NCBI RefSeq assembly: GCF_036971445.1
Contig: NC_091477.1
Location: 113,584,001-113,648,000 of the forward strand
Direction: 5' to 3'
DNA: 64,000 nt
From: Narcine bancroftii
Lineage: Eukaryota
The translations under genes were made by a program, and so were the position numbers. The notes beneath the pieces were generated by a model. That model saw nothing but the letters and a program-made list of their open reading frames with translations, was not told where the DNA came from and did not search any database. This document shows positions 6,245 to 64,000 of the stretch, one piece after another (position 1 is the first letter of the stretch; every line of letters begins with the position of its first letter).

Positions 6245-6903
6245 ACCTTCTTCAGTCTTCTTAAATTTATCCTGGACCTTATCCACCACTTTCAGACATT
6301 TTGCCGGATCCAATTTAATAGAAGATAATTCCCCCTTCATATCAGCATGCTTTTCCTTCACAGATGAAAACCCTTGACCCATCTGAATTGCCAAATTCTC
6401 CATCTGCTTAGACAAGTCAATAGGTAAAGTTGAATCAGAATGATGAGGATCAGACTTAAACTTTAAAGCCTGCTTAACCATAGGCCTACCCTTGTATCTT
6501 AACAGTTTCCTCCTCCTCCTGCTTAACCATAGGCCTACCCTTGTATCTAACAGCTTCCTCCTCCTCCTGCTTAACCATAGGCCTACCCTTGTATCTAACA
6601 GCTTCCTCCTCCTCCTCCTGCTTAACCATAGGCCTACCCTTGTATCTAACAGCTTCCTCCTCCTCCTCCATACCTTGATCTTCTTCTTCCAGTCCTCTTG
6701 TGTCAGCTTCCTTCTCCTCCGTTGATACTGAAGTCGCTTCAGCCCAATTACGGGTCCAAACCCTCCCCTCCTGTCAGTCCAGGATCGCTGGACCGAGAGA
6801 AGTCGGGTCCCCCTGCAGCCTGGGCTAACCCGACATAATGTGCATGTGCGAAACCTTGTGCATGCGCAATTGTTCTTCTTGGTCCGGAGGGGGACGACGT
6901 CAG
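6245..6903 (-). mobile_element. L1/Tx1-type LINE ORF1 region, downstream of the Gypsy insertion
   Basis: Coiled-coil-like peptide (MENLAIQMGQGFSSVKEKHADMKGELSSIKLD...) collinear with 13306-13629 once the Gypsy is removed. Confidence 0.6.
6469..6669. repeat. Minisatellite, ~48-51 bp x4
   Basis: Unit CCTGCTTAACCATAGGCCTACCCTTGTATCTAACAGCTT(CCT)n; reads (E)nAVRYKGRPMVKQ on the minus strand. Confidence 0.95.
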
Positions 6904-7124
6904 TGTGGTGAAGGTCTGCCAAGCTGCCTGTCTCCCCCCCTCTGGCGAGCCTTGCTGTACTAACATTGGCTGTGCGTTATCTCTACTGTTAAGGACACTC
7001 CCCTTGGATATAACTGTATATGCACATATTGTCTTTCATTATTGTACCATGAGTTTCTGCTAATAAAAGCCATGATTATTGTTCGACCACATCGTCTTTG
7101 TCCACTTCATCAACTGGCACTTCA
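6904..7124 (+). repeat. 5' LTR of the Gypsy element
   Basis: TGTGGTG...CACTTCA; TATAA at 7009; AATAAA at 7062; direct repeat of 13093-13305. Confidence 0.95.
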
Positions 7125-7139
7125 ATTTTATTAGCAGAA

Positions 7140-7949
7140 ATGGATGCAGCTCTCAAGCCAGAGCGGTTTATAATCGACCAGTTTGCCCCGAGGGCCAGAG
7201 AAATTTTCAACCACTGGATTGCTTGTTTCGATTACTACATGGCTCGAAACAACGTGGTCAATGAAGCGATACAGTGGGGCAACCTGGAACCTCTGCTGGG
7301 TGAGGTCCCTTTCACCGTAACGCAAGGAGCTACCACTCTGGCTATAGCCCGGGAACGTCTGCCTGCTTACTATGCAGTGCCACGGAATGTGGTGCTTGCT
7401 CGACACCAGTTGTTGACTAGACGCCAGAAACCCGGGGAAAGTGATGCTGCCTATGCACTGGCCCACGACTCGCTGGCAAATGAATGTGATGTCAGGGCAG
7501 TCAATCTGCAACAACACCACAATGCCTTGAAGCTGGATGCTTTAGTTAACGGGATTGACTCCAGTTACATCTGACAGAGGCTGCTGGAGACAGAGCCCTT
7601 AAACTACGACCAGGCAGTCACTCTAGCCAAAACACTGAGAAGTGCCATGTGGTCCAGTGAAATGCTAGAAACCGAAAAGGAAACATCCAGGAGCGCTGGA
7701 ACCCCGAAGGAAAGAAAAGGGCAAACTCTTGAAAAATGCTACTTCTGTGATAAGAGCTGGCACCCCAGACAGAAGTGCTCGGCTCGATTTGCTACCTGTA
7801 GCTACTGTGGGAAACTCGACCACTTCGCTAAAGCGTGTAAGGCAAAAGGTACTCCCACTGATAAGAAGGAGAAGAGAAGCACCAAGAAAATGCATCCTGG
7901 AGCACCAGGAATGGAAGACAACTGTGAAAAGAGGAAAATCTTTAGATGA
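7140..7949 (+). pseudogene. gag: Gypsy gag with one in-frame stop (TGA 7572-7574)
   Basis: ATG at 7140; ARHQLLTRRQKPGES motif; tandem knuckles CYFC...HPRQKC and CSYCGKLDHFAKAC; ORFs 7098-7574 and 7647-7949 share one frame. Confidence 0.9.
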
Positions 7950-8039
7950 GCAGGCTGAATCGACTTCAAGTGACGGCGAGGTGAGATCCCATGATAGTTC
8001 AATTGACTGTCAAGCTTGGGGAATGTTACGGACTGGAAT

Positions 8040-9969
8040 GGTCGACTATGAAGGGGGAGGTGAATGGTGAGACTCTTGATTGTCTAATAGACTCAGGGAG
8101 TGCTGACAGCTACATCCACGAGAGAGTTGCCAGAACCATAAATTTGTGGAGATTTCCAGCGAACCAAAAGATATTGATGGCTTGTAGTGAACTTACAAAA
8201 ACTGTACGGGACAAGTGTAAAGTTACTTTAAATTTGCAGGGACATTGCCTTGCTGATGTGTGGCTCTTTATTATGCCGGAGCTCTGCGCCACCGTGTTTC
8301 TGGGGTTAGATATTCAATCTCAGATGAACAGTGCAGTGTTAAATTTCACTACCCACACTTACCATCCCCCGCATTAGTTACTGCGGTCTGTCCGCATTAA
8401 AGATCAAAGCTTCTCTTTTCAGTGATTTATCCCCTGAGTGTCAGCTGATGGCCACTAAGAGCCGTTCTTACAGCAAAGAGGATTGTGAGTTTATCAAAGC
8501 GGAGACCCAGAGACTGCTTAAAGAGGGAGTAATTGAACCTAGTAAGAGTCCGTAGTTGGCCCAAGTGATAGTCGTGAAAAATCACACTAAGAGACGACTG
8601 GCTATTGACTATAGCCAGACAATCAACCGTTACACTAACCTGGATGCCTACCCCCTGCCACGCATCAATGAAATGATTAATCAGATAGCGCAATACAAAG
8701 TTTACTCCACTATCGATCTCAAAGCAGCTTATCACCAAATCCCCATTAAGAAAAGGGAATGGCCCTATACGGCTTTTGAGGCTGATGAGGGGTTATACCA
8801 GTTTAAAAGGGTACCTTTTGGGGTCACTAATGGTGTGTCCGTGTTTCAGAGGGAAATGGTTAAGATCGTTAGGATGTTTGAGTTACAGGGTACGTTCCCC
8901 TATCTGGATAATGTCACTCTCTATGGGAAAACACAGGCTGAGCATGACAACAACTTAAAGAAAATTTTAGCAACAGCTAAAGAACTCAACCTTATATTTA
9001 ACGAGGGCGAATGTGACAGAGCTACCCATTCTGGGCTACATTGTCCGCAAGGGCGAAATCCGCCCCGACCCGGAAAGAATGGCCCCCCCCTTAAGAAGTT
9101 ACCACCCCCAGACTCAGCAAAAGCCCTTATGGGTTCGGGACTACGCCACGAAGGCACACCCTCTGTTTGACACAAAATATTTTCCTCTCTCTCCAATGGC
9201 TTTGAAGACTTGAGAGAGAATTAAAGCTGATATTGCCAAAGCTGCACTCTCGTCCATTGACGAGGATGTCCCATTCCAAGTGGAAACTGATGCTTCAGAT
9301 TGTGCCTTGGCAGGAACCCTTAATCAAAAGGGCAGACCTGTGGCATTTTTCTCCCACATGTTACGCGGACCTGAACTTAAAAAAACTGCCATTGATAAAG
9401 AAGCCCAGGCTATTATTGAAGCTGTTTGCTACTGGAGACACTTGCGAGCCGGCAGAAAATTTACTCTTGTCACTGATCAGAAATCTGTAGCCTCCATGTT
9501 CAGTACTAAACACAAAAGTAAAATCAAGAACGATAAGATGGCACGTTGGCAAATAGAGCTCTCAACTTATAATTATGCGATCCAGTCCAGACCGGGCAGG
9601 TTAAATGATCCCTCTGACGCATTATCACGATCTGCTGCTGGTGCTCAGCTGGAGGGGCTAAGAGAGATCCATAGCAGACTGTGCCACTCAGGAGTCACGC
9701 AGTTCTTCCACTACATAAGGGCTTACAACCTGCCTTACTCTCTGGAAGAAGTCAGGAAACTGACTAAAAGCTGTCCCATTTGCGCAGAATGCAAACCGCA
9801 ATACTTCAAAGCTCCGGAGGCCACTCTCATCAAGGCAGCCTGACCTTTTGAGAGGATTAGCTTAGATTTTAAAGGACCGTTACCTTCCAACAACAAAAAT
9901 GTATATTTCCTTACTGTAATTGATAAATATTCCAGGTTTCCCTTTGTGATACCCTGCCCTGTCATCTCA
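8040..9969 (+). pseudogene. pol: Gypsy pol: protease, RT, RNase H, integrase N-terminal part (stops and frameshifts)
   Basis: LIDSGS (PR); YPLPRI, IDLKAAYHQI, PFGVTNG, YLDN (RT); ETDASD, PVAFFS, LVTDQK (RH); H..LCH...CPIC and SLDFKGP (IN). Confidence 0.93.
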
Positions 9970-12123
9970 AAAGACAATAGACAATAGGAGCTGGAGTAGG
10001 CCATTTGGCCCGTCGGGCCAGCACCGCCATTTTAGATCATGGCTGATCATTACCATCAGTGCCCCTTTCCAGCCTTATCCCCATAACCCTTAACTCCGTT
10101 ACCCACAAGAGTCTTATCTAACTCTCTTTTGAACATAGTCAGCGAATCCGCCTCTACCACCCTCTGTGGCAGAGCATTCCACAGATTCACACTTCTCTGG
10201 GTAAAAAAATGCTTTCTCATCTCCGTCCTAAAGGGCCTACCCTGTATTCTTAAACTATGCCCTCTAGTCCTCGTCTCCCCCATCATTGGGAACAAGTAAT
10301 CAGACTTCACCTTGTCTATCCCCCTGATGATTTTGTATACCTCAATCATGTCCCCCCTCATCCTTCTAAACTCCAATGGATACAAGTCCAGTTTTTCTAG
10401 CCTTGCTGCATATGACAACCCTGCCATCCCTGGAACTTGTAAATCTGCGCTGCACACCCTCTATAGCTAGTATGTCCTTCCTCAAGTTTGGAGACCAGAG
10501 CTGGACGCAATACTCCAGGTGGGGTCTCACCAGGGCCCTGTATAACTGCAGAAGGCCGTCTCTGTTCCTATACTCCAATCCCCTCTTTATGAAAGCCAAC
10601 ATTCCATTTGCCTTCTTCACAGCTTTCTGAACCTGCATGCTAGCCTTCAGTGACCGGTGAACAAGTACACCCAGATCCATTTGCACTTCCCCACTCCCTA
10701 GCTTGTCTCCATTTAAATAATACTCAGCTTTCCTATTACTTCCCCCAAAATGAATAACCTCACATTTGTTCACATTGAAATTCATCTTCCATTTAGCCGC
10801 CCACTCCTCCAGCCTCTCCAAGTCCCTCTGCATTTTCCTTACATCCTCCTCACACCCCACACCGCCACCCAGTTTAGTGTCATCTGCAAATTTGCTCATG
10901 TTATTTATAATCCCCTCATCCAAATCATTAACATAAATTACAAACAACTGAGGACCCAACACCGATCCCTGAGGCACTCCACTCGTCACATCCTGAAAAA
11001 GACCCATTTACTCCAACTCTTTGTTTCCTATCTCTTAACCAATTTCCTATCCATGTCAGCACCTTACCTCCAATACCATGCTCCCTGATCTTGCCCACTA
11101 GACTCCCGTGCGGTACCTTATCAAAGGCCTTCTGGAAGTCCAAATACACCACATCCACCGGCTCTCCCGAGTCCACCTTCTTTGTCACATCCTCAAAAAA
11201 TTCCAGAAGGTTAGTCAAGCATGACTTACCCTTAAGGAATCCATGCTGACTAGCCCTTATACTATTATTACTGACTAAGTGTTCTGCTATTTCTCCTTTT
11301 ATGATGGACTCCAATATCTTCCCCACCACTGATCTCAGGCTAACCGGTCTATAATTTCCCGTTTTCTCCCTCCCTCCTTTCTTAAAAAGCGGCACCACAT
11401 CAGCCACTCTCCAATCCTCAGGGACCTCCCCGGAATCTATGGAACTTTGGAAAATGTCGACCAGTGCCTCCACAACTTCCATAGCCACCTCTTTAAGCAC
11501 CCTAGGATGCAGCCCATCAGGCCCTGGGGATTTATCAGCCCTCAGTCCCAACAATTTACTCATAACCTCCTGCTTCTGGATCCGGATATCCATTAGATCC
11601 CCTACCTCCCCAGTAAAGTTCCCCAAGTCTCTTGGTACCGCATGACCACTACCCCCTAACTGACTATAACCTATATCCTCCTTGGTGAAGACAGTTGCAA
11701 AGTATTTGTTAAATTTCTCTGCCATCTCCTTGTTTCCGGTAATAATTTCACCCTTGCCCATTTTCAAAGGGCCAATTTTAGACCGAACCAATTTCTTCCT
11801 CTTCACATACTTAAAAAAGCTTTTGCTATCCTCCGCAATATTATCTGCTAATTTCCTCTCGTACTTCATTTTCCCGTCTCTTATGGCTTTCTTAGTTACC
11901 CTCTGATGTTCTTTGAAGGTTTCCCAATCCTCTAATTTCCTACTCCGCTTCGCTATCTTATAATTACTCCCTTTGGACTTGATAATGCACTTGATTTCCT
12001 TAGTTAGCCAGGGCTGCCATTTGCATCTCCTAGAGCCTTTCCTCCACTTTGGAATAAATTTGTCCTGAATCCTGTGAAAAATGTCCATAAAAACCTGCCA
12101 TTTTTCCCCAGTTGTCCTCCCAG
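9970..12123 (-). mobile_element. 5'-truncated CR1 LINE inserted in the Gypsy integrase
   Basis: KSPGPDGLHPRVLKE, NYRPVSL, YLDFQKAFDKVPH, GVPQGSVLGP, SKFADDTK; (CTATTGT)n 3' tail; two small frameshifting deletions; CTCA at both junctions. Confidence 0.95.
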
Positions 12124-12950
12124 CTCATCAGCGTCTGTCATTAAGTCACTTGACAGAATTTTCAGCATTTTTGGTTTTCCCAATTACATTCATACCGTGA
12201 GGGGCTCAGCATTCATTAGCGATGAACTACAGCGAGTCCTGCTACGGAAGGGGATTGTCACCAACCGTACCACAAGCTACAACCCGCAGTGCAATGGGAA
12301 GGTCGAAAGGGCTAATGCTACAGTCTAGAAGACTGTTAATCTTGGTTTAAAAACACATTGTTACCCTGTTACCTGGTAGCAGGAGGTGCTGCCTGAGGCA
12401 CTACACTCTATTCTGTCATTATTGTGTACTGGAACAAATAAAACACCTCATGAACGCATGTTTGCCTTTCCTAATCAGGAAATCAGGAACGGTGATGGAC
12501 TGGCCAGCCTGTTTATCTGAGCCCGGAACCGTGCTGCTGAAGAGCCATGCTCGGGCGCGTAAAACAGACCCCCTAGTCCAATCAGTTCAGTTACTGCATA
12601 CTAACCCCAACTACGCTCATGTTAAATTTCCAGACGGGAGTACTGACAGTGTACCTCTAAGAGATCTGGCCTCGCCTGGTTCGCCCCTTCCTCACACCCC
12701 TACTCAGAGTGAGCCTGAGAGATTGGGCTCACGCCCCAGCCTGTGACCCCTAGTCAGCTTTCAGATGGCCACGCTGAGGCTCCATGCCTCAAGCTGGCGA
12801 TTCTGGAGCGGGTCCAGAAGTCAGTCCTTCCCAGACTACAGACCCAGGAACTGTACCAGTTCCCAAAGTTACAAAGGAGCCACCTCTTTCGAGAAGAAGC
12901 ACCAGAATTCGTAAACAGCCTGATAGGCTGACATTCATAAAACATCTCAT
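12124..12950 (+). pseudogene. pol: Gypsy integrase core and C-terminus (resumes after the CR1)
   Basis: SASVIKSLDRIFSIFGFP, TTSYNPQCNGKVER, TNKTPHERM, RRSTRIRKQPDRL; continues IPCPVIS at 9949-9969. Confidence 0.9.
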
Positions 12951-13092
12951 TATATTTCGATTGCTTGCTAGATACTGGCGTATTTTGGCTGTAAGAGTAT
13001 CTCAATGCCAAACATGGTATCCATGTATCGCTTGCTTCAGTCTTTCCTAGTAGCTGTCCTTTTGATTTTAACTTCTTCTGCCGGGGGGAGAC

Positions 13093-13305
13093 TGTGGTGA
13101 ATGTCTGCCAAGCTGCCTGTCTCCCCTCTGGTGAGTCTTGCTGTACTAATGTTGGCTGTGCATTATCTCTCCTGTTAAGGACACTCCCCTTGGAGTGTGC
13201 ATGCACCTATTGTCTTTCATTATTGTACCATGAGTTTCTGCTAATAAAAGTTATGATTATTGTTCGACCACATCGTCTTTGTCTACTTCATCAACTGGCA
13301 CTTCT
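13093..13305 (+). repeat. 3' LTR of the Gypsy element
   Basis: Direct repeat of 6904-7124 with about a dozen substitutions and two indel regions; preceded by a polypurine tract. Confidence 0.95.
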
Positions 13306-13742: not shown

Positions 13743-13959
13743 TAAATGGTTCATTTAAAAAAAAAACATCATTAAGGGTGGAATAATTGTCCTAGTGGTT
13801 AGTGCAACGCCTTTATAAATGGTTCATTTAAAAAAAAACATCATTAAGGGTGGAATAATTGTCCTAGTGGTTAGTGCAACGCCTTTATAAATGGTTCATT
13901 TAAAAAAAAACATCATTAAGGGTGGAATAATTGTCCTAGTGGTTAGTGCAACGCCTTTA
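13743..13959. repeat. Tandem repeat 72-73 bp x3 spanning flank and SINE head
   Basis: TAAATGGTTCATTT(A)nCATCATTAAGGGTGG...GCAACGCCTTTA starts at 13743, 13816 and 13888. Confidence 0.95.
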
Positions 13960-14175
13960 CAGTGCCAACAATCAGGTCTGAGGTTAGAATTCCACGCTCT
14001 TTGTTTAGAAGTTTAGAAGTTCTCCCCGTGTTTGTGTGGGTTTTCCCTGGGGGCTCCTGTTGCCTCCCACTGTTCAAAACATACTGGGGGTGTGGGTTAA
14101 TTGGGCATAAATTTGGCGGCACAGACTTGTGGGCCAAAATGGCCTGTACCATGCTGTATGTCTAAATCTAAATTT
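13920..14175 (+). mobile_element. tRNA-derived V-SINE (HE1-like)
   Basis: A-box-like TAGTGGTTAG, V-domain GTTCTCCCCGTGTTTGTGTGGGTTTTCC, CR1-like tail GGCCTGTACCATGCTGTATGTCTAAA. Confidence 0.8.
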
Positions 14176-16059: not shown

Positions 16060-17578
16060 CTTTTCTTCTTTCTTTCTTTGGCTTGGCTTCGCGGACGAAG
16101 ATTTATGGAGGGGGTAAAAAGTCCACGTCAGCTGCAGGCTCGTTTGTGGCTGACCAGTCCGATGCGGGACAGGCAGACACGATTGCAGCGGTTGCAAGGG
16201 AAAATTGGTTGGTTGGGGTTGGGTGTTGGGTTTTTCCTCCTTTGCCTTTTGTCAGTGAGGTGGGCTCTGCGGTCTTCTTCAAAGGAGGCTGCTGCCCGCC
16301 AAACTGTGAGGCGCCAAGATGCACGGTTTGAGGCGTTATCAGCCCACTGGCGGTGGTCAATGTGGCAGGCACCAAGAGATTTCTTTAGGCAGTCCTTGTA
16401 CCTTTTCTTTGGTGCACCTCTGTCACGGTGGCCAGTGGAGAGCTCGCCATATAATACGATCTTGGGAAGGTGATGGTCCTCCATTCTGGAGACGTGACCC
16501 ATCCAGCGCAGCTGGATCTTCAGCAGCGTGGACTCGATGCTGTCGACCTCTGCCATCTCGAGTACCTCGACGTTAGGGGTGTGAGCGCTCCAATGGATGT
16601 TGAGGATGGAGCGGAGACAACGCTGGTGGAAGCGTTCTAGGAGCCGTAGGTGGTGCCGGTAGAGGACCCATGATTCGGAGCCGAACAGGAGTGTGGGTAT
16701 GACAACGGCTCTGTATACGCTTATCTTTGTGAGGTTTTTCAGTTGGTTGTTTTTCCAGACTCTTTTGTGTAGTCTTCCAAAGGCGCTATTTGCCTTGGCG
16801 AGTCTGTTGTCTATCTCATTGTCGATCCTTGCATCTGATGAAATGGTGCAGCCGAGATAGGTAAACTGGTTGACCGTTTTGAGTTTTGTGTGCCCGATGG
16901 AGATGTGGGGGGGCTGGTAGTCATGGTGGGGAGCTGGCTGATGGAGGACCTCAGTTTTCTTCAGGCTGACTTCCAGGCCAAACATTTTCAGACTGCTCAA
17001 ACTACAGGGGAATCACGTTGCTCTCCATTGCAGGCAAAATCTTCGCTAGGATTCTACTAAATAGAATAATACCTAGTGTCGCTGAGAATATTCTCCCAGA
17101 ATATCTCGCCAAACGAACACAGCTCAGCGCGGACATTGGCGACTTCAGGGGTTTCTACGAGGCTCTAAAGGCTGTGTACGGCCCCTCACCCCAAGTCCAA
17201 AGCCCGCTGCGCAGCTCAGACGGCAAAGTCCTCCTCAGCGACAAGATCTCCATCCTCAACCGATGGTCAGAACACTTCCAATCTCTTTTCAGTACCAACC
17301 GCTCAGTCCAAGATTCCGCCCTGCTCCAGCTCCCTCAACAGCCCCTAAGGCTAGAGCTGGATGAGGTTCCCACCCTGGATGAGACATATAAGGCAATCGA
17401 ACAACTGAAAAGTGGCAAAGCAGCAGGTATGGATGGAATCCCCCCAGAAGTCTGGAAGGCTGGCGGCAAAACTCTGCATGCCAAACTGCATGAGTTTTTC
17501 AAGCTTTGTTGGGACCAAGGTAAACTGCCTCAGGATCTTCGTGATGCCACCATCATCACCCTGTACAAAAACAAAGGC
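16060..17578. mobile_element. RTE-clade LINE insertion with inverted, permuted 5' part
   Basis: 16060-16988 is the minus-strand ORF C-terminus (..KRACS) with tail; 16988-17578 is plus-strand RT pieces; 12-bp TSD GATTATTGATGT at 16048-16059 and 17579-17590. Confidence 0.95.
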
Positions 17579-17604
17579 GATTATTGATGTAATAATTACA
17601 TAAA

Positions 17605-37670: not shown

Positions 37671-38909
37671 TTCACACACACACAAATAGATGGGGATAGA
37701 TTTAGTGTTAAAGATAGTTTAAGAGTTAGAAATAAAATTATCATTTTAAAATTAAGCATTATCTGGATCATTGTCCTATTGCTGTTCATTACTCCCGGTT
37801 CCTAACAGTATGGAAATGTTAATATAATAACCTGGTCATACCTCAAGTACTCCTGTTCAGAGGACATCTTCAGGCCCATTCTGCTCCAAAGATTCAGCGT
37901 CAATACTATAGAATAAGGGAGCCCCCCGCCTCCCCACACACACACACAGAATTAACAATGAGCCAAATGATTTTTCCCTAACCTCATCGCAGAGTGAAGG
38001 GAGGGAGGTTTAGGGGAGACATCAGGGGTAATTTCTTTTTAAATACAGAGTTCTGGTTGTCTGAAATGTGTTGCCAGGGATGGTGATGGAGGGTGGAACA
38101 ATAGGGGCATTTCAGAGACTCGTAGTCGGGCACATGGATGAAAGCAAAATGGAGGATTACGAGATAGGGAGGGCTTTTTTTAGGTGTATATATACCATGA
38201 GCTTAAGGGCCTGTAGGTGTATTTAAGTTTTCAAAAATCTTTCTGAAATAACATTATGAATGCAGAATGTTGGCAATTAGTTTCAAAGCGGTGAGTTTGA
38301 AGTTACAGGCCTTGGGTGAAAATAAAGGGCAGGTTCTACAATCAGCAGGAGGTGAAAAGTAATAATCAACAGGGATCGCAGGCATTAATGTTTCCATGTG
38401 TTTGCTAGAGACTTGGATAATATGATAAAATGCCAAAGAGATTTCAAGGTTCAAGATTCCTTTTACAGGGCAGGCTTTGCTCTGAATCCACAAAAGAACT
38501 GCTTCAAAAAGCTGTTTTCTCTCCAGCAGTCAGAATGGTTCACCCTTTGCAAAATCACAATGTCTTTGGAAATGTAATGAATTCTGGAACAAACCTTCCC
38601 TCAGTTCTTCCAATGTATTGAATTATCGCTGGGCTGTGACTTGCGTTGCACTTGTGTGAAATGTTAACTGTGACCATTCAGTCCCTTCTGTCTTACATTT
38701 TACTAAAATGGGAGCTCATAATAATACTTGTCAACTTGCAAACTTGTCCTTGTTGAAGTGAAAAGAGTCACACGAGGGCGAACTTGGTTACGAGACGCTG
38801 TTCCTCTGTAACCGATGACTATTCTTATTCTCCCATACACCCTCAACCCAACCCCAGAAAAGACCACCTGTCAGCTCCCCTGCATTCAGCACCAGTCAGA
38901 TACCCATGC

Positions 38910-39553
38910 TTTTCTTCTTTGGCTTGGCTTCGCGGACGAAGATTTATGGAGGGGGTAAAAGTCCACGTCAGCTGCAGGCTCGTTTGTGGCTGACGAGTCC
39001 GATGCGGGACAGGCAGACACGGTTGTAGCGGTTGCAAGGGAAAATTGGTGGGTTGGGGTTGGGTGTTGGGTTTTTCCTCCTTTGCCTTTTGTCAGTGAGG
39101 TGGGCTCTGCGGTCTTCTTCAAAGGAGGTTGCTGCCCACCGAACTGTGAGGCGCCAAGATGCACGGTTTGAGGCGATATCAGCCCACTGGCGGTGGTCAA
39201 TGTGGCAGGCACCAAGAGATTTCTTTAGGCAGTCCTTGTACCTTTTCTTTGGTGCACCTCTGTCACGGTGGCCAGTGGAGAGCTCGCCATATAACACGAT
39301 CTTGGGAAGGCGATGGTCCTCCATTCTGGAGACGTGACCCATCCAGCGCAGCTGGATCTTCAGCAGCGTGGACTCGATGCTGTCGACCTCTGTCATCTCG
39401 AGTACTTCGACGTTAGGGATGAAAGCGCTCCAATGGATGTTGAGGATGGAGCGGAGACAACGCTGGTGGAAGCGTTCTAGGAGCCTTAGGTGATGCCGGT
39501 AGAGGACCCATGATTCGGAGCCAAACAGGAGTGTGGGTATGACATCGGCTCTG
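38910..39553 (-). mobile_element. 5'-truncated RTE LINE
   Basis: Near-identical to 16070-16713; open frame to ..HKRACS; no TSD evident. Confidence 0.95.
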
Positions 39554-54868: not shown

Positions 54869-54881
54869 ACTTTGTATCTTT

Positions 54882-56240
54882 CTTTCTTTGGCTTGGCTTC
54901 GCGGACGAAGATTTATGGAGGGGGTAAAAAGTCCACGTCAGCTGCAGGCTCGTTTGTGGCTGACAAGTCCGATGTGGGACAGGCAGACACGATTGCAGCG
55001 GTTGCAAGGGAAAATTGGTTGGTTGGAGTTGGGTGTTGGGTTTTTCCTCCTTTGCCTTTTGTCAGTGAGGTGGGCTCTGCGGTCTTCTTCAAAGGAGGTT
55101 GCTGCCCGCCAAACTGTGAGGCGCCAAGATGCACGGTTTGAGGCGTTATCAGCCCACTGGCGGTGGTCAATGTGACAGGCACCAAGAGATTTCTTTAGGC
55201 AGTCCTTGTACCTTTTCTTTGGTGCACCTCTGTCACGGTGGCCAGTGGAGAGCTCGCCATATAACACGATCTTGGGAAGGCGATGGTCCTCCATTCTGGA
55301 GACGTGACCCATCCAGCGCAGCTGGATCTTCAGCAGTGTGGACTCGATGCTGTCGACCTCTGCCATCTCGAGTACTTCGACGTTAGGGGTGTAAGCGCTC
55401 CAATGGATGTTGAGGATGGAGCGGAGACAACGCTGGTGGAAGCGTTCTAGGAGCCGTAGGTGGTGCCGGTAGAGGACCCATGATTCGGAGCCGAACAGGA
55501 GTGTGGGTATGACAACGGCTCTGTATACGCTTATCTTTGTGAGGTTTTTCAGTTGGTTGTTTTTCCAGACTCTTTTGTGTAGTCTTCCAAAGGCGCTATT
55601 TGCCTTGGCGAGTCTGTTGTCTATCTCATTGTCGATCCTTGCATCTGATGAAATGGTGCAGCCGAGATAGGTAAACTGGTTGACCGTTTTGAGTTTTGTG
55701 TGCCCGATGGAGATGTGGGGGGGCTGGTAGTCATGGTGGGGAGCTGGCTGATGGAGGACCTCAGTTTTCTTCAGGCTGACTTCCAGGCCAAACATTTTGG
55801 CAGTTTCCGCAAAGCAGGACGTCAAGCGCTGAAGAGCTGGCTCTGAATGGGCAACTAAAGCGGCATCATCTGCAAAGAGTAGTTCACGGACAAGTTTCTC
55901 TTGTGTCTTGGTGTGAGCTTGCAGGCGCCTCAGATTGAAGAGACTGCCATCCGTGCGGTACCGGATGTAAACAGCGTCTTCATTGTTGGGGTCTTTCATG
56001 GCTTGGTTCAGCATCATGCTGAAGAAGATTGAAAAGAGGGTTGGTGCGAGAACACAGCCTTGCTTCACGCCATTGTTAATGGAGAAGGGTTCAGAGAGCT
56101 CATTGCTGTATCTGACCCGACCTTGTTGGTTTTCGTGCAGTTGGATAATCATGTTGAGGAACTTTGGGGGACATCCGATGCGCTCTAGTATTTGCCAAAG
56201 CCCTTTCCTGCTCACGGTGTCGAAGGCTTTGGTGAGGTCA
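54882..56240 (-). mobile_element. 5'-truncated young RTE LINE with an open 425-aa RT/C-terminal frame
   Basis: DLTKAFDTVSR, GVKQGCVLAP, LLFADD, FTYLG; 13-bp TSD ACTTTGTATCTTT (54869-81, 56241-53). Confidence 0.97.
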
Positions 56241-62893: not shown

Positions 62894-64000
62894 TTTTCCC
62901 AATGCACCCATGTTTTAACAAAACTAAAAAAAAACTCACTGCCCGTTAAGATATTTAAACTGCACTCCAACTTTCATGAATAATATGGATAACTGTTAAG
63001 CCTTAATGCTATACTTGGTTATCGACTGTGCTCATGAAGGTAATTTTTCAATAGCAATTTTCTATTAATAATTAACTGCCCTGATCAATTTAAAAACGAG
63101 GCAACTTCAGCATGAGGACATTTGAGGATGAGTGGATAAATAGCAATTCAAAGAATAAAGCTTGGTTAAGCGCAAAACAAAACCTTCATGACATTTCTCA
63201 TACAAAGTGACCAATAAAGAGAGTCTTGCATTATGCTATCCAGATTTATTCTTGTCGCCTGTGTGTTGAATCCTGGTACCATGTGAAGAGCACCCAAAGA
63301 GCGCAGGCCAAGTCAAAATACCACAAGCAGTGAAATTTTGAACTTGCTTCTGCTGTTAACAGTAAGGCCCCATCTGCCTTACTGAATTTCAGAATGTCCT
63401 GCTTTATTACAGCAAAATTGCATTTGACTTTGCTCTGTTACCCACGGAGAGGCAGTATTACTTCCCCTCGCCTTTCACATTGTTTGACTCTGATTTCATT
63501 CACCATGGTCATTTCTGGAGGGATTTGATGATAAATAATAGTTAGTGCCCAGGAAGAAAATGAAAAGCGGTGTTCCAGAGCCATTTATTCAGCAAATACG
63601 CTCAGGTTTCGCTGGCTCATTGGCAAGCAGCAATGGATGCTTAATTCAGTGTGACAGCACAAGGAACATGCCAGGGATGTGTGTAATTTGCATTTGCTGT
63701 AAATTCTCAGCAAAAATGAATTCTGAGTCTCTGCCTATTCCCCCATGGGCTTGAACCTTGCAGAAAACAATCCCAAATTTCACACCTCATTTGCGTCTCT
63801 CATTGACACTGTGCTGGAAACCATTTGAAACGAGAGCATGCAGCTGGAAGAGCTTATTTTAAGGGACCACGAGTGCAGCAAATCAAGTAGAAAACTTAAG
63901 TCACACTGCTAATATCTTGAGAAGTGCCTGCTTGGAACATCATGTGGGAGTAATACCATCATGTCCTGAAAGATATGGCATACAGTGATTAGAAACAGAT

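Follow-up and report, generated by a model that had tools for sequence, protein, structure and literature searches.

The 64-kb window (the whole stretch of DNA that was analysed) contains a Gypsy element that spans 6904 to about 13305 (Table 1). The element has the structure of a Ty3/Gypsy LTR retrotransposon, with the domain order PR-RT-RNaseH-IN, TG...CA LTRs, a polypurine tract (PPT), and a target duplication. The LTR ends and the PPT were fixed from 20 family copies, many of which carry 5-bp target duplications (for instance, CCTGT, AAGTT, and CATAG). The window copy is decayed: its reading frames are broken by stops and frameshifts, and the integrase holds an inserted LINE fragment, about 2.1 kb long, which we take to be CR1-like from its motifs. 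In addition, the two LTRs differ at 15 of 213 aligned sites and by two indels. The gag ATG starts on the last base of the primer site (7140). The RT active-site motif, located in 8556-9170, is YLDN and not YxDD, and YxDN was found in 94 of the 120 relatives listed. Furthermore, tandem repeats flank the element (6459-6672, about 49 nt, 4 copies; 13755-13970, about 72 nt, 3 copies), and a non-LTR retrotransposon-like repeat is present in three copies, 86-98% identical, at 16060-17587, 38900-39250, and 54870-55220 of the window.

Table 1. Features of the Gypsy element in the window
Feature	Position	Strand	Basis and remarks
5′ LTR	6904..7124	+	221 bp, TGTGGTG...CACTTCA; ends set from 20 family copies
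TTAAGG, positional homologue of the TATA-like box of related families	6989..6994	+	putative function; predicted start near 7020
TATAA (7009) and TATAT (7017) motifs	7009..7021	+	putative alternative promoter, start near 7038-7047
LTR arm, 3′ part of the predicted self-primer	7054..7068	+	predicted cut after 7068; complementarity and covariation
AATAAA hexamer within the arm, likely poly(A) signal	7062..7067	+	sequence
Predicted second helix stacked on the arm, and U5 stem	7069..7118	+	GCCA 7069-7072 pairs with TGGC 7115-7118; folds, shuffle control
7-nt bulge containing the LTR end	7119-7125	+	predicted fold
Single base separating the primer site from the LTR end	7125	+	A in 26/27 representatives
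Primer-binding position, complement of the LTR arm, without TGG	7126..7140	+	sequence and representatives
Broken gag-pro-RT-RNaseH-IN region	7140..12940 (end approximate)	+	two CCHC knuckles, YLDN RT motif; copies L034, L044
LINE fragment within the integrase	9970..12125 (boundaries approximate)	-	ORFs 10056-12124
Polypurine tract GGGGGGAG and 2-nt AC spacer	13083..13092	+	sequence, family copies
3′ LTR	13093..13305	+	terminal CA degraded; no clear target duplication in the window copy

The arm in the 5′ LTR (7054-7068, TTTCTGCTAATAAAA) and the post-LTR site (7126-7140) are exact reverse complements of each other. An earlier reading of the window, made from the sequence only, had described a perfect 15-nt complement of the element's own LTR at the PBS position, and the match holds: at 63,672 mock post-LTR positions in the window, a perfect complement to the LTR was never longer than 12 nt. 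The primer-like geometry and the missing tRNA PBS noted in the same reading were also borne out. The complement begins one base (the spacer A) past the terminal CA of the LTR, in a register that is fixed across the representatives described below, and no TGG follows the LTR. That reading had further pointed out that the arm is the same in both LTRs despite their divergence. The arm is indeed identical in the 3′ LTR (at 13235), but an unchanged 15-mer is weak evidence alone, since it is expected by chance in about 1 in 3 cases.

To find relatives, the RT-RNaseH-IN sequence was used as a query against a protein database, and 816 longer proteins were matched, which is a lower bound for the lineage. 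The best 120 of these at least 816 relatives were 50-61% identical to the query, typically started with MDxxL[RK]PERL, and mostly had two CCHC knuckles. The named sources among the matches listed were rays, a catshark, Trichuris (nematode), Actinostola (sea anemone), and Styela (tunicate). A Gag-only protein search gave 1 match, and two scans of viral contigs gave no relatives.

The alignment of relatives retrieved 80 metagenome loci, 29 of which had the gag start and enough upstream DNA. In addition, gag queries in the window's own genome gave two sets of 30 loci, one from a young second family and the other from older families. The young second family showed the same layout with compensatory change at 30/30 loci when inspected by eye. 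For this family (L131-L160), there were at least 150 copies in which the first 70 Gag residues are 100% identical to the query, and many open frames of 1,400-1,500 aa. The remaining loci were screened with a cut-off of at least 10 of 12 pairs with the own LTR at the CA+1 register. Positives were found at 22/29 metagenome loci and 21/30 other own-genome loci (43/59 in total). Some of the 16 loci missed by the screen are visibly deleted or decayed, and the metagenome loci L053, L089, L103, and L124 were missed without explanation.

From the positives, that is, for showing the duplex, 27 representatives were picked, and 26 of them (12 from the own genome and 14 metagenomic) were aligned. Their own LTR and own site formed on average 12.4/13 pairs, compared with 8.9 between families, and 0 of 100,000 permutations were as high; the representatives are partly related (gag identity up to 0.87, and 1.0 for L058/L059), so that these permutations and the shuffles below overstate independence and are not strict probabilities. 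Pairing begins at LTR end +2 in all representatives, and TGG within 7 nt of the LTR end occurs in 0/27. In the 26-row alignment (A2), 91.5% of the arm/site cells are paired and 87 cells carry a double-sided change. The observed value was reached by 0/500 shuffles on four measures and by 2/500 on a fifth, which again are not strict probabilities, and slid registers gave a pairing of only 31-49%. The sequence-only reading had suggested looking for compensatory covariation in relatives, and it is present: 12 of the 15 pairs have changed on both sides in these 26 selected rows. Furthermore, both LTR arms of L058 carry a G>T change, mirrored in the site, that sets it apart from L057, L059, and L060, its siblings with 97.8-98.9% identity across about 4.2 kb. 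This double change is a single case, and it would be the outcome expected from primer copying. The arm is 11-16 nt long. Its last bases are TAAA, AAAA, or TTAA, the next ones mostly GCC or ACC, and 34-65 nt separate it from the end of the LTR. The arm/site duplex is a real and conserved feature of the whole lineage.

Two unrelated elements of the own genome (L239 and L240) carry ordinary TGG sites. L239, which we take to be Mag-like (as with our other Mag-like labels, from motifs), is nested inside the family copy L042 and has 180-bp LTRs, and its site reads CA and then TGGCGACGAGG. L240 (L240:3637-9235) also lies inside a family copy; its two 774-bp LTRs are identical, and its TGG site comes two bases after CA. 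Its long open frames gave no alignment to the Gypsy RT query, and our impression is that it is possibly retrovirus-like. L063, at first a candidate TGG-bearing member, was rejected; it is really a circular junction inside gag. The own genome is also rich in elements with integrase before RT (Gmr1-like order; L223-L234 and L236-L238). Three further loci (L221, L222, and L235) are decayed remnants of sushi-like chromoviruses with a chromodomain-like end, and they are too decayed for a comparison of primer geometry.

A DNA search of the own genome gave 1,972 candidates for the window's own family. Among 75 distinct copies, 43 formed 15/15 pairs and 73 formed at least 12/15, and the exact arm-gap-site pattern had 506 matches genome-wide, a few of them read twice (both strands). 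At position 7 of the primer site, a T>G variant recurs in 37 copies compared with 506 (about 7%), and it accounts for 35 of the 38 non-T letters. Concerted arm/site change within this family was looked for and not seen: the site variant is unlinked to the arm, with 1 mirrored copy, which is about the chance level, and no linked SNPs mark it. In the copies with a C in the arm for which both LTRs were found, the arm change is in the 5′ LTR only (5/5). The arm change A>C is the commonest at its position (23 of 43 non-A letters). Arm A>C and site T>G are a single type of change, in an identical sequence context, read on opposite strands, and a mutation bias can explain the arm side. The candidate sources of the recurring site variant (G000 family copies, L299-L327, L335) are a mismatch-bearing master and recurrent misincorporation. 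The lack of an observed concerted change in the window's family counts against self-priming.

Judged from complementarity and covariation, the lineage likely primes reverse transcription with its own RNA, free of tRNA and in a Tf1-like way. The transcript would start about 35 nt before the arm (16 nt with the alternative TATA) and fold so that the arm pairs with the primer site. The RNase H of the element, by analogy with Tf1, would then cut at the AAA/GCC junction, where the second helix is predicted to stack. This would free a 3′ end on a capped RNA fragment about 30-55 nt long. Extension of that end through the spacer A and U5 would give a strong-stop DNA of 35-65 nt, which would jump via the short R homology between the cut and the poly(A) site. 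In members with the hexamer inside the arm, the same duplex would also mask the 5′ poly(A) signal. The helix stacked 3′ of the arm beat its shuffles in 21/26 representatives (mean 0.69 vs 0.41). The spacer base and the last A of the primer would make 2 nt beyond CA, which matches the 2 nt between the PPT and TG. Retroviral end-processing is the basis for reading a 2-nt extension beyond CA, and by this analogy the match may reflect such an extension.

The sequence-only reading had placed the transcript start just 5′ of the arm, on the basis of TATA-like motifs. These motifs (TATAA at 7009 and TATAT at 7017) are present. However, in six related families of the own genome, a TATA-like box precedes the 3′ end of the arm by 82-87 nt, and the homologous box of the window's family is TTAAGG at 6989, 80 nt before the arm end. 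From this spacing, the leader before the arm is predicted to be about 35 nt long and the primer about 50 nt, whereas the TATA at 7009 would give a primer of about 30 nt. With either promoter candidate, transcription is predicted to begin 5′ of the arm. A clear TATA is missing from most invertebrate members. In Tf1 the primer is at the 5′ end of the RNA, and the predicted position of the arm inside the transcript would count against self-priming.

Alternatively, the duplex could serve only to mask the 5′ LTR's poly(A) signal (together with the gag AUG), with priming by another, unseen route. The hexamer AATAAA/ATTAAA overlaps the arm in 17/26 representatives, which favours a poly(A) role and counts against the self-priming reading. 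Only the 5′ end has a partner strand, and the predicted fold of the window copy extends over the gag AUG. Such a role is known from HIV-1, in which a hairpin occludes the 5′ poly(A) signal. However, the duplex is kept in the 9/26 representatives without AATAAA/ATTAAA in the arm, and in three of these (L051, L054, and L118) the hexamer lies downstream, outside the duplex. Poly(A) hiding also gives no reason for the missing TGG site, and it leaves the invariant register unexplained. This fixed register to the LTR end recognised by integrase supports priming, because priming demands it and occlusion does not. Thus, we think it unlikely that the duplex only hides the signal; poly(A) hiding is compatible with self-priming as a second function.

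It is also quite unlikely, in our judgement, that the arm primes in trans, without a Tf1-like cut in cis. In this reading, short transcripts of solo or 3′ LTRs, or the 3′ end of a co-packaged genome, would be trimmed back as far as the end of the arm and would anneal to the site. The arm is present in every LTR and ends at the poly(A) hexamer, the site of RNA 3′ processing, and the window's family shows no coupling between arm and site variants. LTR copies also outnumber internal ones in contigs from four runs of one study that we guess to be RNA-derived, which is a weak point in favour of priming in trans. Against it, the conserved helix directly 3′ of the arm and the short distance of 34-65 nt favour folding in cis. 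Poly(A) cleavage normally occurs 10-30 nt after AATAAA, and a cleavage flush with it would be unusual. Finally, half-tRNA primers exist in Copia lineages, as described in the available text of PMC6317226, but priming by a host tRNA fragment or other small RNA, with the self-complementarity incidental, is highly improbable, since the site varies between families in step with its own arm, so that the covariation largely refutes it, and an Rfam scan of 6850-7300 gave no match at E ≤ 1.

The sequence-only reading had noted no visible chromodomain, and this is borne out: PF00385 (chromodomain), and likewise PF24626 (SH3_Tf2-1), is absent from the precomputed domains of the best 120 of the at least 816 relatives; they are present in most of the fish elements compared. 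A set of 181 RT-RNaseH rows was reduced by identity to 95 and to 61 rows for two trees, and 50 of 97 rows were used for a third tree of RT-RNaseH-IN; the model was LG+G4 without mixture. The references were fish chromodomain elements, unnamed Gypsy domains, and own-genome elements, none of them a Tf1, fungal, or named Mag reference. In all trees, the lineage was on one side of a branch with a support of 100. The claim that the element lies outside Tf1/sushi stands in part: nesting among the 7 fish chromodomain (sushi-type) rows sampled was rejected (p = 4e-54), but sisterhood to chromoviruses was not (AU p = 0.56 for RT-RNaseH and 0.15 for RT-RNaseH-IN). The same is true for the Mag-like label. 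The Gag with two CCHC knuckles resembles Mag, but the pol is on its own 100-supported branch, separate from the Mag-like sequences, and nesting with one Mag-like subgroup was rejected (p = 0.004). Sisterhood to the whole Mag-like set (p = 0.13) and, with RT-RNaseH alone, joining with the fish group plus P0234 (p = 0.24) were not rejected. The deep relatives of the lineage carry no clade names. The lineage should not be filed as Tf1/sushi or Mag.

With sisterhood to chromoviruses still standing, the independent origin of tRNA-free priming proposed in the earlier reading is unproven. Nevertheless, it is plausible, because other chromovirus clades use tRNA according to the available text of PMC6317226. 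Our tentative scenario, to which we give somewhat less than an even chance, is that tRNA-free priming arose, separately from Tf1/sushi, in an old and large Gypsy lineage found across animals, which co-opted the hairpin hiding its 5′ poly(A) signal. In this scenario, one duplex would silence the signal and, when cut at AAA/GCC, yield a capped primer of about 50 nt.

Priming by tRNA is treated as a hallmark of LTR elements, and self-priming as confined to Tf1/sushi and a plant Copia lineage. If the present lineage self-primes, independence from tRNA would be far commoner in animals than described, tRNA 3′ fragments would fail to silence such elements, and annotation tools based on the PBS would misjudge them. 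In addition, the overlap between primer and poly(A) signal suggests an evolutionary route to self-priming, and the predicted AAA/GCC junction specifies the exact position at which an RNA end should be found. The mechanism is known already from yeast, which limits the surprise.

In Mag elements, a TGG-starting tRNA PBS is typical, whereas the junctions of the 27 representatives have no TGG. The lineage is similar to Mag (A/B/C clades) in the two CCHC knuckles of Gag and in short LTRs with a clear AATAAA, as far as these are described in the available text of PMC3601003, and its integrase end is RRS.R..K.PDR-like. Saci2/lennie and MolGy are unplaced invertebrate Gypsy groups (PMC6238403, available text). 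The available descriptions of lennie give a tRNA-Leu PBS and 4-bp target duplications (PMC4558846, PMC12471100), whereas the window's lineage has 5-bp duplications and no tRNA PBS. The lineage could already bear a name, that of a large MolGy clade (PMC6238403, available text). In the literature searched, in which most subscription journals were not covered, we found no prior description of self-priming in this lineage.

According to the parts of the literature available to us, Tf1 has been shown to prime itself, and the same has been inferred for Tf1/sushi, Tcn1, and Copia TAR (PMC6317226, PMC4600332, PMC10085805, PMC6934838). Skipper (PMC5006619) and SM-Tcn1 (PMC2864245) are described, in the text available, as tRNA-less cases without complementarity to the LTR. 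Tf1/Tf2 of S. pombe, Tj1, Tosmo/Tcry, and Tf1/sushi likewise have no tRNA PBS and a site complementary to the 5′ LTR in the accessible accounts (PMC7175516, PMC4600332, PMC10085805). The Tf1 primer is the first 11 nt of the RNA (PMC7175516, available text), whereas in the present lineage about 35 nt of transcript are predicted to precede the arm, which usually overlaps the poly(A) hexamer. In the Tf1 "pretzel", U5 forms a second duplex with sequence located 3′ of the primer (PMC10085805, available text), and the predicted stacked helix of the lineage resembles it. The arm/site duplex corresponds to the central duplex of the pretzel. A third duplex of the pretzel type was not supported in the 26 representatives, as its own score (6.6) was no higher than the cross-family score (6.9). 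Further differences from Tf1/sushi are the absence of the chromodomain and SH3_Tf2-1 (120 relatives listed), the two CCHC knuckles, and, mostly, YxDN.

For Copia TAR (Houba, Osr-1) and Tcn1 of plants, self-priming was predicted by the same criterion of LTR complementarity (PMC6317226, available text). TAR is therefore a precedent, already predicted in that source, for an origin of self-priming outside Tf1/sushi. However, TAR is a plant-specific Copia lineage and Tcn1 is a chromovirus, whereas the lineage of the window is an animal Gypsy lineage without a chromodomain.
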